From: Ostreococcus lucimarinus
Lineage: Eukaryota
Direction: 5' to 3' (one strand)
Assembly: GCA_000092065.1 (NCBI GenBank)
Contig: CP000592.1
Length of the DNA stretch: 64,000 bases
Shown: piece after piece, positions 17,125 to 24,728 of the stretch
Numbering within the stretch: position 1 is the first letter of the stretch
Layout of the letters: each line of letters begins with the position of its first letter
Notes under the pieces: model-generated
Seen by the model: the letters and a program-made list of their open reading frames with translations, nothing else
The model's database searches: none
What the model was told of the DNA's origin: nothing
Position numbers and translations under genes: made by a program

Positions 17125-18561
17125 ATGGTTCGCGGTAAAGTCCTCGTCGTCGCCGGCTCCGACTCGGGCGGCGGCGCCGGCGTCCAAGCCGACGTCAAGG
17201 CGATCCTCGCCCACGGCGCCTTCGCCACGACCGCCATCACCGCGCTCACCGCTCAAAACACCACGGGCGTGCACGGCGTCCACGCCGCACCGTTGGAGTT
17301 CATCGAGGCGCAGATCGAGGCCGTGGTGACGGATCTACCGCCAGACGCGTGCAAGACGGGGATGCTGGCCAACGCGGCGACGACGCGCGCCGTCGCCGAC
17401 GCGATCGAACGACATCGATTGACCAACGTCGTCGTGGACACGGTGATGCTGGCGAAAGGCGGCGCGAGCCTGCTCGAAGCGGAGGCGCTGGAGGTGATGC
17501 GGGATCGATTGGCGCCGCTCGCGACGGTGATCACGCCAAACGTCCCGGAGGCGGCGGCGCTGCTAAACTTGAGCGAGGAAGAGTTCGTGATGGAGACGAT
17601 GGCGACGCGGGCGAAGGAGTTAGGGAAGTTAGGGTGTCAGTGGGTGTTACTTAAGGGTGGGCACGTCAAGGATGACGCGGAGATGTCGGTGGATTATTTG
17701 TACGAGGCGAACACGGGGAGGACGACGACGTTCTCGAGCGCGAGAATAGATACGAGGCACACTCACGGGACCGGGTGCACGCTCGCGAGCTCGATCGCGG
17801 CGTCGTTGGCGCAAAGGTATGACGTTCCTACGGCGGTGCATCGAGCGAAGAGGTACATCTCGGAGGCGATTCGAACGAGTCCGGGGTACGGCGCGGGACA
17901 CGGGCCGTTGAATCATTTGCCGTTTCACGCCGGCGCGGCGGCGCGTGGAAAGCGGTTCGATCCGCGATGTTTGAAACTTTATCTCGTCAGCAGTGAGGCG
18001 TTGACCATGGATAAGCTTCGACAGGCGCTCGAGGCGGGAGTGACGATTGTGCAGATGCGCGATAAGGATCCCTCGACGAGGGCCTTGATCGAACGCGCCA
18101 AGGCGATGAAGGCGGCGTGCGATGAATACGGCGTCCCGTTCATCGTCAACGATCGTGTCGACGTCGCCATCGCGTGTGACGCCGATGGTGTGCACTTGGG
18201 TCAGTCAGACATGACTTGCGCGGAGGCTCGACAAATTCTTGGTCCGAATAAATGGATCGGAGTGAGCTGTCGAGAGGTGTCTTTGGCGCGCCAAGCAAGC
18301 GCCGACGACGCCGATTACATAGGGTGCGGCGCGTGTTTCGGCACTAATTCCAAGGGTGACGCTAAAGTCATCGGCTTGGATGGTGTCGGGAAAGTTATCG
18401 CGGTAGCTCGCGAGCTTTCCTTACCAGTCGTCGCCATCGGGGGCGTCTCGCTCGAAAACGCCGCGTCTGTTCGAGCGACGGGCGCCGACGGAATAGCCGT
18501 CATTTCCGCCGTCGCCAACGCGGCGGACGTGAAAAAGGCGGTCCATAAGTTGCTGCATTAG
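17125..18561 (+). CDS. TH1: bifunctional hydroxymethylpyrimidine (phosphate) kinase / thiamine-phosphate synthase (ThiD-ThiE fusion, TH1-like)
   Basis: The N-terminal half (KVLVVAGSDSGGGAGVQADVKA..GMLANAATTRAV) is a ThiD/PfkB-type HMP-P kinase. The C-terminal half (VSSEALTMDKL..IVQMRDKD..VNDRVDVAIACDADGVHLGQSD..AIGGVS) is a ThiE TMP synthase. The first ATG in the ORF is at 17125. Confidence 0.9.
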   Translation: MVRGKVLVVAGSDSGGGAGVQADVKAILAHGAFATTAITALTAQNTTGVHGVHAAPLEFIEAQIEAVVTDLPPDACKTGMLANAATTRAVADAIERHRLTNVVVDTVMLAKGGASLLEAEALEVMRDRLAPLATVITPNVPEAAALLNLSEEEFVMETMATRAKELGKLGCQWVLLKGGHVKDDAEMSVDYLYEANTGRTTTFSSARIDTRHTHGTGCTLASSIAASLAQRYDVPTAVHRAKRYISEAIRTSPGYGAGHGPLNHLPFHAGAAARGKRFDPRCLKLYLVSSEALTMDKLRQALEAGVTIVQMRDKDPSTRALIERAKAMKAACDEYGVPFIVNDRVDVAIACDADGVHLGQSDMTCAEARQILGPNKWIGVSCREVSLARQASADDADYIGCGACFGTNSKGDAKVIGLDGVGKVIAVARELSLPVVAIGGVSLENAASVRATGADGIAVISAVANAADVKKAVHKLLH

Positions 18562-18600
18562 TTCAATCCTAACGTGTTAATACTATCATTAGCTAGATGA

Positions 18601-19188
18601 CTACGCGTGCGCGGCGAAGAAGTCACGTTCAAGACGAATCGCCTCGACGTAATTATCGACGGCGCGCTCATCCTCGATTTCTTCGGGTAATAACGACTCT
18701 AAACGACACGCGAGGGATTCCATCTCATCCCCACCGTACGCCTCGAACCATTCGGCGTACGGTGACGTCCGCGGGTCGGGAATTCCGTCTACACCCGCAT
18801 CCGCTCGCGTGAGAAAGTACCGACCGACGTACGCATACAGTCGCATGCACGGAATCATCCCGGCGACCAACTCGAGCGAAGATTTCCCGTGCAAAGACTC
18901 CAGAAACTCCACGTACGCCCGGCTCGCGGCGTGCACCTCGACGGCGTCCACGTCCACGCCCCACTTTTCACACGCCGCGGAGTGTAACTTCAGCTCGTCG
19001 AGCACGCCGCCGATGAGTTCGTGAAAGACTCTCTGCTCGTCGACGTCCGCGGCCAGGCGAAGCGCCTGCGCGTACGCTCGATTGAAATGAAACAAGAAGT
19101 ACGCGTCTTGCGACAGATAGCGAAGATACTTCTCGCGAGGGAGCTCCCCGGTGGCCATCTGATGCACGAACGACCCGCTGGCGGTCAT
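18601..19188 (-). CDS. tenA: TenA/thiaminase-II family protein (aminopyrimidine salvage); N-terminus may lie in an upstream exon
   Basis: The ORF (GELPREKYLRYLSQDAYFLFHFNRAYAQALRLAADV..) has the TenA/PqqC-like helical pattern. The frame upstream of ATG 19188 still encodes TenA-like residues (ALWSRPDVAKYVAE) but has no ATG before a stop. It is convergent with TH1, with only about 39 nt between stop codons. Confidence 0.75.
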   Translation of the reverse strand: MTASGSFVHQMATGELPREKYLRYLSQDAYFLFHFNRAYAQALRLAADVDEQRVFHELIGGVLDELKLHSAACEKWGVDVDAVEVHAASRAYVEFLESLHGKSSLELVAGMIPCMRLYAYVGRYFLTRADAGVDGIPDPRTSPYAEWFEAYGGDEMESLACRLESLLPEEIEDERAVDNYVEAIRLERDFFAAHA

Positions 19189-19930
19189 CTCCGCGACGTA
19201 TTTCGCGACGTCGGGGCGACTCCACAGCGCTCGCGCCGAATCGGGCCGAGCGGGCGTCTGCGAGCGACAACCACGTCACCGAAACCCGTCAGTCGTCTCG
19301 CAAACGCGCGCGAAACCGATAAAAACGCCTCGCGCGAGCATTCCACGACGCGCGCGTCGACCGACGACCGTCGCGCCGCGTCTGTCTCCGCGCCGCCGCC
19401 GTCGCCGCGTCGCGCCGCCGCGCGCGCGCGCGCGCGTCGCGCCACCGCCGTCGAGGCCGTCCTCCGTCCGCCCGACGCGCGACGCCCGAACGTCAAAAAC
19501 CACGATCGCCACCCATCGCCGCGTCGTCGCGTCGTTGAGAACGCCCCCGCGCGACGCGCGCCGCCTCCGAGCGTCCCGCGCGCCGCCCGCGCGTCCCCTT
19601 CGTCGCCCGCCCTCGTCGTCGCCGCGCGCGCGCACCTCGCTCGCGGTCGTCGACGGATCCATCGCGCGCGCGTCGTCCGTCGCGCCGCGCGTCGCGCGTC
19701 GCCGCGCGCGCGTCGCGCGTCGTCGCGCGTCGTCGCGTCGTCGTGTGCGCGACGGACGCCGCGCGGGTTCGCCATCGATCGCGCGCGAACCTCGACGCAT
19801 CGATCGATCGCGTCGCTCGAAACGCGTCGAAAGGCGTCGATCGCGCTCGATCGATCGCGTCGATCGCGCCATCGATCGGCATCGATCGCGAGGGCGACGG
19901 CGGGCGTCGATCGCGCCATCGATCGCGCAC

Positions 19931-20134
19931 GCGCAGGCTGGACAAAACGTAATCACGCATTTCGAGCTCATCGGCTTGACGAATGCTGAATACGTAGGAA
20001 ACTCTTTGAGGTATACCACTTAACGCGGATCCAAAGTTGAAACCACTAAAACGGCCCCAAGAGTTTCCTGTGTATTCAACGTTCGTTAAGCCTATGAGCT
20101 TGAAATGCGTGATCGCGTTTTGTCCAGCCTGCGC
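19931..20134. repeat. inverted pair of an ~85-nt dispersed element (copy F 19931..20010 forward, copy G 20058..20134 reverse), spacer about 47 nt
   Basis: GCAGGCTGGACAAAACGTAATCACGCATTTCGAGCTCATCGGCTTGACGAATGCTGAATACGTAGGAAACTCTT recurs as its reverse complement about 50 nt downstream at roughly 85% identity. It shares the GGCTGGACA..CTCATnG..(T/C)(G/A)AATACGTAG(G/A)AAAC cores with the copies at 27178..27500, 43405..43455 and 53978..54055. Confidence 0.7.
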
Positions 20135-20311
20135 TTTCGGCGGCCGCCCGTGGTTTCCGCGGTCGGTGGTCGACCTCGCCTCGAAACCGGCGCCGACGAT
20201 CGGCCGCGCGAAACGAAACCGGGCGATCGATCGATCGACGATCGATGCGCGCGCGGCGCGTCGAACGCGTCCGCACACCGCGCTCGGCGAGTGGCTTCCG
20301 ACGACGCGCGA

Positions 20312-20400
20312 CGGCCGACGGCGCGCGAATCGAGCCTGAGAACACGTAAATCGTTTGAACTTGTATCGGGGTAATACCTGCGTAAGGACTGAGCCGGCGA
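20312..20400 (+). ncRNA. candidate thiamine pyrophosphate (TPP) riboswitch aptamer in the 5' leader of the SSS transporter gene
   Basis: Read directly: CCUGAGAACACGUAAAUCGUUUGAACUUGUAUCGGGGUAAUACCUGCGUAAGGACUGAGCC. It carries the J3-2 CUGAGA, the UUUGAAC(C/U)UG segment, a P5 hairpin CGGG-GUAAUA-CCUG (consensus CUGG-AUAAUG-CCAG) and CGUAAGGA (consensus CGUAGGGA). The changes preserve pairing (CUUG with UAAG; CGGG with CCUG via G-U). The transporter ATG is about 70 nt downstream at 20468. Confidence 0.65.
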
Positions 20401-20467
20401 ACGACGCGCGAGGGGTCGCGCGAACGACGAGGACGCGGGGGTTAGGGCAAATCCCGGAGAAACGACG

Positions 20468-22339
20468 ATGGCGAACTACGGGTGGTTGTACGCGCTGATA
20501 TCGCTGTACGGGGTCGCGTCCGGCGCGGCGGCGACGTTCGCGCACCGGCGAAATAAGGCGGCGGCGAACGACGCTGGGGACGCGATGCGGAACCACTTCG
20601 GCGGCGGGAAGGGACTCGGCGGCGTCGCGCTGTTTTTTACGCTCTCGGCGTCGCTGTTTTCGGCGTATTCCGTGGAAGGGATCGCGTGGGAGGCGTGGTT
20701 TAAGGGATGGTTCGCCACGCGATGGATTCCAGCGGGCGTCGGGGTGTACATGGGATTTTTGATCATGGCGCCGCGACTGAACGCGCTCGGAAAATTGCGA
20801 GGGTATCTCACGCTGAGCGAAGTCGTCTACGACAGGTTCAGCGCGCCGAATTCTCGGCATCAACTCACGGCGCACGCGCTGCGAGTGATCACCTGGGGGT
20901 GTTTGTTGCTTCCAATCTTCTGCTACCAAATTTCGCAGTTTGTGTCGATGGGTAAAATCGTCGAGGCGTTCACCGCCGGCGCCATCTCGGAGACGGGCGG
21001 GGTGTTGATCTTTGCCTTGATCATGATCGCCGTCGAGGCCGTCGGTGGTCTTCGTGCGGTGGCGTATACGGACATCATTCAAGGATGCATGCTCATCGTC
21101 GGTTCGCTGATCTTCTTCATCGCGAGCGGGGTGGAATTCGGTGGATTGTCGCGAGCGAAGGATTACTTCGCCGCGGCGTCACCCCCCAAGTTTCAAACCA
21201 TTCCCAAAACGGACGGGTCTTGGTCCATCATATCGTACACCTCGTTCACGCTTCGCGTGTCCGTCGCGGCGACGATGTTTCCGCACCTCGCCATGCGATT
21301 GTTCGTCGCGAAGGATCGTAAAATGCTCCAACGCGGTTTGGCGGGGATGAACTTTACCTTTTTCTGGGTCCAACTCTCCACCATGATCGCCGGTTGGACC
21401 GCGGTGTACGCCCTGCGTGATGTCGCCACTGTGGCGGACATCGGAAATCAACAATCAATCTTTGGAAAACTCGCACTCCAGCTGAAGAACGCTTCGGCGT
21501 TCGGGGACTTCTCCGCGTCGCTCTTGGTTCTCGCCGCCTTCGCGGCGATGATATCCACCGCCGACTCTGGTTTGCTCGCCTTCAGTACGATGTTTGTGCG
21601 CGACATTTACCAGCCCTACGTTCAAAAAGTGTTCCCAAAAGCGCGTGTCGATGGAAACGCGCTGAAAATCGTTGGATTGGTGTCCTCCCTCGCCGCTCTC
21701 GGTGTCGGTTTGGGGCTGTCCATCGTCAACCTCCGCGAAGGCAAACCCGACATCACTGGGTTGTTCTCCATTCAAACCGTCACCCCGATTCACGCCGTTC
21801 CAGCAGTATGGGGTGGGATCCACCTTCACTGGCTCTCCGGCGAAGCCGTCCTAGCCGGTATCGTGGCTGGTGTCATCTCCGGCTTGGTCATGGTTCTGGA
21901 CACCGAGTTCAACGTCAAGCGGAACCTCGGCCTCGATGAACACTCCACGGGGTGGAACACCGCATGCTTTGCGTTTTTGATAAACGTCGGCGTCGTCATT
22001 CTCGTCACACTCTTGGAAAAGTTTGTCGTCCCCGCCGCGAAATCCGCGGCGACCGCGCAAACGAACACGCTGTTCATCGGTAAAAAAGTGGACAAGATGC
22101 TCTCCAACCCGATCCCGTGGTTCTTCATGATTTTCACCTTGCTCGCGGCGTGTCCGTTCTGGTACAAGCCCGGGAGTCAAGTGAAATACGTCGGCGACAT
22201 GGCGGCGTGGGGGTTTACGAGCTTGTTCTTTTCCTTCATCCTCGCGCTTCAAGTATCGGCGATGTACATGTATCGCTGGGAAGATTTCGTCCCCGAAGGC
22301 GAAGACGAGAAATCCGTCGACAAGGCGGGTCAGGTGTGA
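20468..22339 (+). CDS. sodium:solute symporter family (SSF/SSS) transporter, putative thiamine or thiamine-precursor transporter
   Basis: 623 aa with about 13 hydrophobic transmembrane segments and the SSF-like pattern (GGGKGLGGVAL..SAYSVEG). It is riboswitch-associated and flanked by thiamine-metabolism genes. The substrate is an inference. Confidence 0.85.
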   Translation: MANYGWLYALISLYGVASGAAATFAHRRNKAAANDAGDAMRNHFGGGKGLGGVALFFTLSASLFSAYSVEGIAWEAWFKGWFATRWIPAGVGVYMGFLIMAPRLNALGKLRGYLTLSEVVYDRFSAPNSRHQLTAHALRVITWGCLLLPIFCYQISQFVSMGKIVEAFTAGAISETGGVLIFALIMIAVEAVGGLRAVAYTDIIQGCMLIVGSLIFFIASGVEFGGLSRAKDYFAAASPPKFQTIPKTDGSWSIISYTSFTLRVSVAATMFPHLAMRLFVAKDRKMLQRGLAGMNFTFFWVQLSTMIAGWTAVYALRDVATVADIGNQQSIFGKLALQLKNASAFGDFSASLLVLAAFAAMISTADSGLLAFSTMFVRDIYQPYVQKVFPKARVDGNALKIVGLVSSLAALGVGLGLSIVNLREGKPDITGLFSIQTVTPIHAVPAVWGGIHLHWLSGEAVLAGIVAGVISGLVMVLDTEFNVKRNLGLDEHSTGWNTACFAFLINVGVVILVTLLEKFVVPAAKSAATAQTNTLFIGKKVDKMLSNPIPWFFMIFTLLAACPFWYKPGSQVKYVGDMAAWGFTSLFFSFILALQVSAMYMYRWEDFVPEGEDEKSVDKAGQV

Positions 22340-22437
22340 TGCGCCTTGAGCGTGATTCGGCTAGCTAAACTATACCTTTTTCAATTTCTACACCATAGCT
22401 AGTCTATTTCACACGGTCCTCATCTCCGACGCGCTCA

Positions 22438-23262
22438 CTACTCGTAGCTTTTTAGACTCGCCAGCGCGTCAAAGAATGCCACTTGGAAAGAAGCAGGTCC
22501 GGAAAAGTTCCCTAACCGAACAACGTCAGTCGCAATCCGTCTGTACACTAGGCACGAGGCTCGCAACGCTCTCGCATTCGCTAGTCCCGATCCAGGAACC
22601 GTCGCCGCCAGGAAGGCTCCGAGGCAACAACCCGCGCCAGAAAATTTCTGCAGAATCGGCGCATCGAACTCATGAACGGCTTCGTTTCCGGGCGCACCAT
22701 CGACCCGAGTTGATCGCGGTGTGGTAACATAATCCACGCTCCCAGTCATCACAATCATCGCGCCAAGCTTTTCCGATAGTTGATTCAGCGCGTCGAAAAC
22801 GTCTTTTTCCGCGCAGTCGCCGTCGGACGATTCCGGCGTAACGCTCAAATTCGCCCCAACGCTACCGTTCACAGCAAACAACTCAATCAACGCTTCGATT
22901 TCACTTCGATTTCCCTTCACCACAGTGCGCATCGGTCGCACATCGCTCGCGTCCCGAGCGACGGCGCCGCGCCGTTCCAACCACTCCTTTACCGTTCTCC
23001 CTCTCGTCTCCAGTCCACACCCCACGGGATCGACCACGACGTTTTGCGCGCTGAGCACGGCGTTTGCGATCTCCGCCGTCGTGGGCGTGCCGAAATTCAA
23101 CACGGTCACGTCGCAGAGCGATGCGGTGAGCGCGGCTTCCTCGTAGGTGGTGCATCCCATGCACGGTTTCGCACCGACGGCGAGCACGACGTCCGCGGCT
23201 TTGGACGCCGAGCACGCGTTCATGATGAGCTGAACCTTCGGACTCGCGCGCGCGTCGTCCAT
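22438..23262 (-). CDS. thiM: hydroxyethylthiazole kinase (ThiM)
   Basis: VQLIMNACSASKAADVVLAVGAKPCMGCTTYEEAA aligns with the ThiM N-terminus (LVHSITNNVV..LALGASPVMA), and the C-terminal GAGCCLGAFLAA matches the ThiM GAGC motif region. It is convergent with the transporter gene, with about 98 nt between stops. Confidence 0.85.
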   Translation of the reverse strand: MDDARASPKVQLIMNACSASKAADVVLAVGAKPCMGCTTYEEAALTASLCDVTVLNFGTPTTAEIANAVLSAQNVVVDPVGCGLETRGRTVKEWLERRGAVARDASDVRPMRTVVKGNRSEIEALIELFAVNGSVGANLSVTPESSDGDCAEKDVFDALNQLSEKLGAMIVMTGSVDYVTTPRSTRVDGAPGNEAVHEFDAPILQKFSGAGCCLGAFLAATVPGSGLANARALRASCLVYRRIATDVVRLGNFSGPASFQVAFFDALASLKSYE

Positions 23263-23511: not shown

Positions 23512-23877
23512 TTACTTCTTGGACTTCTTCGGCAACAACACGGAGTGGATGTTCGGCAAAACACCACCGGCCGCGATGGTCACCGTACCGAGGAGCTTGG
23601 AAAGCTCTTCGTCGTTGCGGATCGCCAACTGAATGTGGCGCGGCACGATGCGGGACTTCTTGTTGTCTCGGCTCGCGTTGCCCGCGAGTTCGAGCACCTC
23701 CGCGCACAAGTATTCGAGCACGGCGGCCAAGTAGACCGGCGCACCGGCACCGACGCGCGTGGCGTACTTGCCAGCCTTCAAGTAACGGGCGACACGACCG
23801 ACCGGGAATTGCAAGCCCGCCTTGGCGGATCGGCTCGTGGCCTTCTTGCCGGACTTTCCTTTACCGCGACCAGACAT
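23512..23877 (-). CDS. H2A: histone H2A
   Basis: [42 protein letters not shown] is canonical H2A. Confidence 0.95.
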
Positions 23878-24389: not shown

Positions 24390-24728
24390 ATGGCCAAGAA
24401 ACCCGCGCAAAAGAAGCCCTCGGGCGCCAAGAAGGTTGGACGCAAGTCCAAGTCCGAAACCTACAAGATCTACATCTACAAGGTCTTGAAGCAAGTGCAC
24501 CCGGACACCGGTATCTCCTCCAAGGCGATGTCCATCATGAACTCGTTCATCAACGACATCTTCGAGAAGATCGCCACGGAAGCCGCCAAGCTCGCGCGAT
24601 ACAACAAGAAGCCGACGGTCACGTCCCGCGAAATCCAAACCGCGGTCCGATTGATCTTGCCGGGTGAACTCGCCAAGCACGCCGTCTCCGAAGGCACCAA
24701 GGCTGTCACCAAGTTCACCTCCGCGTAA
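24390..24728 (+). CDS. H2B: histone H2B
   Basis: [71 protein letters not shown] is canonical H2B. The track ORF starts at an alternative codon at 24285; the first real ATG is at 24390. Confidence 0.95.

Follow-up and report, generated by a model that had tools for sequence, protein, structure and literature searches.

Genes and activities of thiamine (vitamin B1) metabolism are joined to one another in several described systems. Bacterial thi operons (thiM-thiD-thiE, the tenA-containing operons, and the THIE-THIM-THID-SSSP operon of Alkaliphilus oremlandii) bring together the functions considered here (thiazole kinase, HMP-P kinase and TMP synthase), TenA sometimes among them, with a transporter of the sodium:solute symporter (SSS) type and a thiamine pyrophosphate (TPP) aptamer. 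Their genes lie on one strand and in one transcript, and are all under a single riboswitch, which acts by termination or by occlusion of the ribosome-binding site. In yeast, the same four activities are linked by protein fusion, in THI6 (ThiE-ThiM) and THI20 (ThiD-TenA). Eukaryotic TPP riboswitches of the splicing type are represented by Neurospora NMT1, the 3' untranslated region (UTR) of plant THIC, and Chlamydomonas THI4 and THIC. In this work, we analysed four adjacent thiamine genes, TH1, TenA, SSSF and ThiM, at positions 17125-23262 (6138 bp) of a 64,000-nucleotide stretch of Ostreococcus lucimarinus contig CP000592.1, the whole of which we call the window, and compared them with these systems.

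Compared to the bacterial operons, the Ostreococcus cluster consists of four monocistronic genes, its aptamer serves one of them, and its transporter belongs to the eukaryotic SSSF clade and not to SSSP/ThiV. Compared to yeast, the pairings are different; only ThiD and ThiE are fused, and the others are linked by gene adjacency. SSSF resembles the SSSP/ThiV/Dur31 symporters in that it belongs to the SSF family (PF00474), has a role connected with thiamine and carries a TPP aptamer on its mRNA. However, it forms a group separate from SSSP in the work of McRose et al., with 15 predicted transmembrane helices versus 13 (PMC4260697), and the SSSP of O. lucimarinus is a different gene (XP_001417224) outside the window. 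With the splicing-type riboswitches SSSF shares the aptamer class and the variable P3 stem, but the host gene is intronless, there are no conserved splice sites in the leader and no spliceoforms have been reported; the expression platform therefore differs from the splicing type.

The locus is the published TH1-TENA-SSSF-THIM cluster of O. lucimarinus CCE9901, and the reading of it as a thiamine cluster is correct and already known from work of 2009-2014. McRose et al. 2014 (ISME J 8:2517; PMC4260697) gave SSSF its name, listed the O. lucimarinus gene in Table S2 (XP_001420601, 0 introns, 5' UTR riboswitch, credited to Worden et al. 2009), reported in the main text that SSSF, TH1 and THIM are collocated in Ostreococcus spp. 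and Micromonas CCMP1545, and drew TH1, TENA and THIM as its neighbours in Suppl. Fig. S4. The original prediction, made on the window, had implied that the cluster was new, which does not hold given that the same locus in the same genome is found in that figure and table. What the present analysis adds is metagenomic synteny in further lineages, a corrected register of the aptamer, a problem with the start codon of TenA, and an inverted duplication. In exact-sequence look-ups, the proteins XAP5 (XP_001420599, A4S5F8), TH1, TenA, ThiM and H2A (XP_001420769, A4S5G3) of the window are all identical to those of CCE9901, and the SSSF open reading frame (ORF) has V413 and S616, the two residues that set XP_001420601 apart from its cluster representative.

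We searched the four translations against Pfam profiles. TH1 (17125-18561, plus strand, 478 aa; XP_001420600, A4S5F9) carries in one chain an N-terminal ThiD domain at residues 13-263 (Phos_pyr_kin, PF08543) and a ThiE domain at residues 285-463 (TMP-TENI, PF02581), both of full profile length, with scores of 301 and 212 bits against a cut-off of 27 (E 6.7e-90 and 6.9e-63). The kinase domain begins at about residue 13, and there is therefore no N-terminal extension. TenA (18601-19188, minus strand, 195 aa as annotated; XP_001420767, A4S5G0) scores 75 bits with TENA_THI-4 against a cut-off of 22 (E 8e-21). SSSF (20468-22339, plus strand, 623 aa, single exon; XP_001420601, A4S5G1) scores 107 bits with SSF against 22.8 (E 1e-30) and is identical to the accession that McRose et al. 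list under that name. ThiM (22438-23262, minus strand, 274 aa; XP_001420768, A4S5G2) scores 86 bits with HK (PF02110) against 27 (E 3e-24), covering profile positions 6-245 of 247. All four family assignments of the original prediction were thus recovered, at the coordinates and on the strands it gave, and the distances of 39 and 98 nt that it reported between convergent 3' ends agree with our direct reading of the two AT-rich gaps between stop codons (18562-18600 between TH1 and TenA; 22340-22437 between SSSF and ThiM).

In order to look at the active sites, the translations were aligned to solved structures from the PDB. The TenA segment 'mipCmrlY' lies opposite 'laPCvmgY' and 'llPCfwsY' from TenA proteins of solved structure, which places a catalytic Cys, presumably the equivalent of Cys135 in Bacillus subtilis TenA numbering, in the 'PC' motif. 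The Asp of 'QDAYF' ('sQDayf') and the C-terminal Glu of 'lERDFF' likewise align with their counterparts. Since the catalytic Cys and its Asp and Glu partners are kept, we assign the protein to the TenA_C (aminopyrimidine hydrolase) type. In ThiM, 'sGAGCclga' aligns with 'vGTGCalsa' of the hydroxyethylthiazole kinase 6jyy, and the G-x-G-C motif with the catalytic Cys is kept.

We then examined the region upstream of SSSF, which the original prediction had called riboswitch-preceded. No TPP match in the window reaches the Rfam gathering score of 54.3 bits, which is a curation threshold and not a structural feature. A permissive Rfam search of 16.5-24 kb gave one TPP match, at 20301-20406 (29.6 bits, E 0.01), and this score is low because the Rfam model is mis-registered around an unusually long P3 with a 41-nt insert. 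By comparison with orthologues the aptamer was placed at about 20282-20394 on the plus strand, with its 3' end 73 nt ahead of the SSSF ATG. Its true 5' half opens with the conserved (A/G)CGAGUGGC at 20287, and CUGAGA is at 20336-20341. The stems in the window are P1 GCUCG(G)/(C)UGAGC, P2 GCGA/UCGU, P4 CUUG/UAAG and P5 CGGG/CCUG, together with the long P3. Orthologous aptamers upstream of SSSF in Ostreococcus tauri and two metagenomic lineages score 48.2, 47.3 and 43.5 bits (E 2e-6 to 3e-5).

The register was evaluated on 15 distinct orthologous aptamers. In unconstrained minimum-free-energy (MFE) folds, P1 and P5 were formed in all 15, P4 in 13 and P2 in 10, and the P3 hairpin was always present. 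P1 was tested by per-sequence folding and by self-versus-cross complementarity; column counting on a MAFFT alignment was dropped, as bulges shift the register between lineages. P1 occurs as eight distinct hexamers, and every one of them pairs with the 3' strand of its own lineage over 4-10 contiguous bp (mean 5.9), compared to a mean of 2.8 contiguous bp when strands are paired across lineages. Compensatory changes are seen in P2 (ACGA/UCGU to GCGA/UCGC) and in P5 (CAGG/CCUG to CAAG/CUUG to CGAG/CUCG). The conserved elements are CUGAGA, GAAC-UUG, and an AAU-containing P5 loop followed by GCG-(N)AAGGA. The orthologues thus have the three-way junction P1/P2-P3/P4-P5 with invariant CUGAGA, the P4-P5 sensor sequence and covariation. 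On these comparative grounds, and in agreement with Table S2 of McRose 2014, we regard the riboswitch as real though weak by the standard model; the Rfam score alone would not establish it. A second riboswitch for TH1, TenA or ThiM was ruled out, as the 16.5-24 kb search returned none up to E = 10, and at three orthologous loci no further TPP aptamer was found down to E = 1, so that SSSF alone has one. In Micromonas pusilla, thiamine deprivation raises the level of SSSF mRNA more than 10-fold (McRose 2014, PMC4260697).

The leader of SSSF is informative as to how the aptamer might act. The 3' strand of P4 contains GUAAG, which resembles a 5' splice site; such a site within the aptamer was considered and rejected, since other lineages have GGAAG, CAAG or AAAG at this place and McRose et al. 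list 0 introns. Alternative splicing of the usual eukaryotic type cannot be the mechanism, because SSSF is intronless, GUAAG is not conserved, and nothing 3' of P1 is conserved in sequence. The linker between aptamer and start codon (20395-20467, plus strand, 73 nt) is ATG-free and differs in sequence between lineages. From the start of the aptamer to the SSSF start codon (160-260 nt) there is no ATG in any of the lineages (the window and L001, L004, L006, L008, L009, L019, L024, L029 and L037, where L numbers denote public contigs); in the window leader taken by itself this absence is not significant, 12% of shuffles being ATG-free as well. The nearest upstream ATGs are 17-163 nt before the aptamer at positions that are not conserved, and the ORFs starting from them stop inside the aptamer, or beyond it in three lineages. 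In the window, the candidate upstream ORF (uORF) runs from ATG 20245 to TAA 20346-20348, inside the aptamer. Transcription of SSSF probably starts near the aptamer, which would make the aptamer cap-proximal with an ATG-free leader behind it. When TPP is plentiful, the ligand-bound aptamer would then hinder loading or scanning of the 43S complex, and mRNA decay would follow, with no splicing involved. uORFs ending within the aptamer would also be consistent with the leader.

For the synteny comparison, SSSF relatives were located on public contigs and their neighbours were mapped by tblastn. The order XAP5, TH1, TenA, SSSF, ThiM, H2A/H2B, acyl-CoA synthetase recurs, as far as contigs reach, in environmental O. 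lucimarinus contigs, in two further Ostreococcus clades and in O. mediterraneus-like contigs; in a sister strain of 97% identity it was seen partly, contig ends limiting the view. The full order is present on 11 contigs outside the window (L006, L008, L012, L013, L020, L021, L022, L024, L028, L029 and L033), and these come from O. lucimarinus and no fewer than five other lineages of Mamiellales, M. pusilla and O. mediterraneus-like ones among them. In M. pusilla, whose SSSF is 99% identical to that of CCMP1545, the four-gene core recurs, and tblastn detected neither H2A nor acyl-CoA synthetase beside it. This check of orthologues bears out the suggestion of a co-inherited module, the gene order being the same across Ostreococcus clades and in M. 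pusilla. ThiM evolves by far the fastest of the four, with orthologues of 33-51% amino acid identity to the window, compared to 73-81% for SSSF, 62-77% for TH1, 49-69% for TenA and 95-98% for H2A. The rapid divergence of ThiM may relate to the published use by these algae of the carboxylated thiazole cHET and not of hydroxyethylthiazole (HET).

Two lineages deviate from this order. In O. tauri, an alga that supports homologous recombination, a 567-aa sulfotransferase-like gene (minus strand, L001 6032-7735) is at the place of TH1; TH1 is elsewhere and a rearrangement breakpoint lies between TH1 and TenA, whereas all other lineages have TH1 at the site. In one Ostreococcus clade (L017-L019, L024, L037) ThiM and H2A are inverted as a block relative to SSSF, both on the plus strand, so that ThiM is still near SSSF and the convergent SSSF/ThiM layout is lost.

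The term operon-like, used in the original prediction, holds only as a metaphor; a polycistronic unit it is not, as neighbouring genes lie on opposite strands and SSSF is the one gene with an aptamer. The strand order in the ORF list is TH1 plus, TenA minus, SSSF plus, ThiM minus, which gives two convergent pairs and one divergent pair, and for this reason there is no shared transcript. Because their stop codons are convergent there, the 3' UTRs of TH1 and TenA must overlap or share the 39-nt gap. With adjacent genes of one pathway and an order conserved in at least five other Mamiellales lineages, the locus is better called a conserved eukaryotic functional gene cluster than an operon.

Taken together, we are highly confident that this is the known cluster for uptake and salvage of B1 precursors, with a riboswitch-controlled SSSF and separate transcription units. 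O. lucimarinus, being without THIC and THI4, has to assemble B1 from imported pieces, and the cluster holds most of what is needed. From established enzymology, TenA_C hydrolyses AmMP (4-amino-5-aminomethyl-2-methylpyrimidine) to HMP (4-amino-5-hydroxymethyl-2-methylpyrimidine), the ThiD half of TH1 phosphorylates HMP to its pyrophosphate (HMP-PP), ThiM phosphorylates the thiazole precursor, and the ThiE half of TH1 condenses both moieties into thiamine monophosphate. SSSF would be a putative Na+-coupled importer with the TPP aptamer in the 5' leader of its mRNA, bringing in a B1 precursor rather than intact thiamine and, judging from the data on orthologues, being repressed when thiamine is available. 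The four genes would be separate transcription units, and the cluster would persist since its members serve a purpose only as a set and are passed on or lost as one. Two published results concern the salvage steps: an O. tauri ThiM deletion is unable to salvage precursors (PMC5322297), and CCE9901 grows on HMP, AmMP or the N-formyl derivative of AmMP (FAMP) if the thiazole precursor cHET is supplied (PMC10470507).

Several points weigh against this interpretation. O. tauri functions with TH1 elsewhere, and adjacency is thus not essential. The aptamer in the window stays below the Rfam gathering score (29.6 versus 54.3 bits), and the upstream ATGs could form uORFs ending inside the aptamer, which would be a different mechanism. 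A transport assay of SSSF was not found in the searchable literature. SSSF could carry intact thiamine, because SSSP carries thiamine in a diatom. Finally, Chlamydomonas and Volvox, which make B1, keep a riboswitch-bearing SSSF (PMC4260697), and its presence in prototrophs is consistent with uptake of thiamine just as with that of precursors.

An alternative is that the genes are still neighbours as a neutral leftover from the gene order of an ancestor, which would have no regulatory or selective meaning, with the enzymes constitutive and independent of SSSF. That the aptamer is on SSSF only and that the strands alternate would be expected in such a case, and so would the displaced TH1 of O. 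tauri and the inverted ThiM and H2A of one Ostreococcus lineage; moreover, the flanking housekeeping genes XAP5, H2A/H2B and acyl-CoA synthetase are equally syntenic. However, four thiamine genes in a row would be expected by chance about 1e-9 to 1e-8 times per genome, assuming 7,651 genes of which 6-10 are thiamine genes. In addition, the order survives to M. pusilla, where the Ostreococcus flanks H2A and acyl-CoA synthetase were not detected, and in bacteria these functions have been grouped independently beside an SSS transporter. Neutral synteny is viable as far as regulation is concerned, but hard to square with the persistence of the cluster to Micromonas, and we consider it unlikely overall.

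With regard to the substrate of SSSF, family relatives point in more than one direction. The SSSP/ThiV relatives take up thiamine in Phaeodactylum tricornutum and HMP in SAR11. HMP-only auxotrophs (Emiliania huxleyi, SAR11) are reported with SSSP/ThiV, and dual pyrimidine and thiazole auxotrophs with SSSP and SSSF. McRose et al. assign SSSF and SSSP to the taxa with TH1 and THIM, and assign ATS1 and UNK1 to the Micromonas clades in which these enzymes are missing; RCC299 is listed with the riboswitch genes ATS1 and UNK1 rather than SSSF and SSSP (PMC4260697). Because of this phylogenetic profile and the position of SSSF beside ThiM, a thiazole precursor such as cHET is our leading, still tentative, guess. 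A pyrimidine (HMP, AmMP or FAMP) comes second as a possible substrate, because SSSF shares its upstream region with TenA. A substrate other than these or thiamine is the least likely. Each SSSF homologue with an organism name comes from a eukaryotic alga (37-81% identity), and XP_003062945 of M. pusilla CCMP1545 falls in the cluster of a 74%-identical SSSF homologue. A crude hydropathy count gave nine strong segments in SSSF, which is too coarse to set against the published 15 helices and is not a topology prediction.

Uptake of intact thiamine, as by the diatom SSSP or the fungal Dur31, would make the adjacency of SSSF to salvage enzymes uninformative on precursors. In addition to the two prototrophs mentioned above, this possibility draws on the fact that CCE9901 does take up thiamine. 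On the other hand, a second symporter under riboswitch control, SSSP, is already present in Ostreococcus, the presence of SSSF and SSSP tracks that of TH1 and THIM with ATS1/UNK1 in the Micromonas clades lacking both, and it is the dual auxotrophs that have SSSF in addition to SSSP, compared to SSSP/ThiV in the HMP-only ones. We therefore think it improbable that thiamine itself is the substrate, and retain the reading of SSSF as an importer of precursors.

Another possibility is that the lone SSSF aptamer controls how all four genes are expressed, with no operon involved, via transcriptional interference or overlapping antisense 3' ends. An effect of SSSF on all of its neighbours is conceivable because it shares a 1.28-kb divergent promoter region with TenA and is transcribed head-on towards ThiM across the 98-nt gap. 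The basis of this idea is purely geometric, and we regard it as a long shot. An origin as a horizontally acquired and later rearranged bacterial thi operon is least credible of all: the A. oremlandii THIE-THIM-THID-SSSP operon has the same content (McRose et al., PMC4260697) and the best solved structure for TenA is 3mvu at E 1.5e-18 (1.5e-08 for the next), but TH1 is a single ThiD-ThiE chain of the bifunctional type that McRose et al. call plant-like (PMC4260697), the organism-named homologues of SSSF are without exception algal, the cluster (0.58-0.64 GC) does not differ from its flanks in base composition, and the genes are monocistronic on alternating strands.

The annotation of TenA has a problem at its start. 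The annotated protein begins about 22-25 residues later than the solved TenA chains in the PDB alignments. The N-terminal helix alpha-1 is encoded in frame upstream, on the minus strand at 19189-19275, as 'ARALWSRPDVAKYVAE', and is conserved with 'AVDLFNRPDVRSYVDD' of O. tauri. No ATG, GTG or TTG is present upstream of this helix before a TGA 29 codons up, and a complete helix alpha-1 beginning from a recognisable start codon was accordingly not found. Environmental O. lucimarinus contigs and a second clade (L024) share the missing start, whereas an ATG is available further upstream in O. tauri, L006 and L008. This is a fault of the gene model and not evidence against membership of the TenA family; judging from the sequence, an unannotated intron or a non-AUG start is likely. 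Intron-like elements of the form CTGAC...CAG are found upstream of the TenA ORF in both the window and L024. A candidate 69-nt intron (GTTTTT...CAG, with a CTGAC branch-like motif), considered as a way to give TenA a start codon, would keep the frame; its donor is poor, and the L024 equivalent has no visible ATG.

The 1.28-kb region between TenA and SSSF is mostly made of CG-rich short tandem repeats. The part nearest to TenA (19189-19925) is CG-rich low-complexity sequence with short tandem repeats according to Tandem Repeats Finder, and the ORFs in it are Arg-rich artefacts. A region of similar length separates the two genes in O. tauri and the clades of L006 and L024, compared to only some 230-600 nt in L004, M. 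pusilla and the O. mediterraneus-like contigs. A repeat search found, some 140 nt ahead of the TPP aptamer, an inverted repeat with arms at 19926-20006 and 20059-20139 (81 nt each, 86% complementary, 52-nt spacer). Its fold comes to -136 kcal/mol (z = -17) and is as good on one strand as on the other. The repeat is present in the environmental O. lucimarinus contigs L012-L014, and the sister strain with 97%-identical SSSF (L015/L016) has the right arm only. Since the sister strain has one arm, about 126 nt (19940-20065) is taken to be a recent inverted duplication. Further copies were not found in the window, in O. tauri, in other lineages or in IMG/VR. We considered the long hairpin as a conserved regulatory RNA, a miniature inverted-repeat transposable element (MITE) or a viral element, and rejected all three, as it is single-copy, absent in other lineages and folds in a strand-symmetric way. 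The inverted duplication is probably outside the conserved module.

The flanking genes within the 64 kb are of housekeeping type: proteasome RPN2, UNC-50, a cohesin loader, AIM24, a Sec16/WD40 protein, an RRM protein, XAP5, acyl-CoA synthetase, MCM8, HemD, ALIX, a HECT ligase, a cyclophilin and others. Directly beyond ThiM there is a divergent H2A/H2B pair (23512-23877, minus strand, and about 24390-24728, plus strand), which is syntenic in all Ostreococcus lineages examined. Histones H2A/H2B, MCM8 and RPN2, among others, bear out the eukaryotic nuclear setting that had been proposed for the cluster. No further thiamine-family gene is among the 26 other ORFs scanned across the window. The TenA_E gene A4S5E6, suspected to be nearby from its accession number, was ruled out, with 0 of these 26 ORFs qualifying.

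If the aptamer of SSSF did govern its neighbours, a TPP-dependent change in SSSF transcription or mRNA stability reaching them would take the place, in a eukaryote, of polycistrons under riboswitch control. Ostreococcus and Micromonas, which are abundant primary producers in the sea, are unable to make vitamin B1, and the cluster is the genetic core of living on B1 fragments released by other plankton, a significance that the literature has already recognised.

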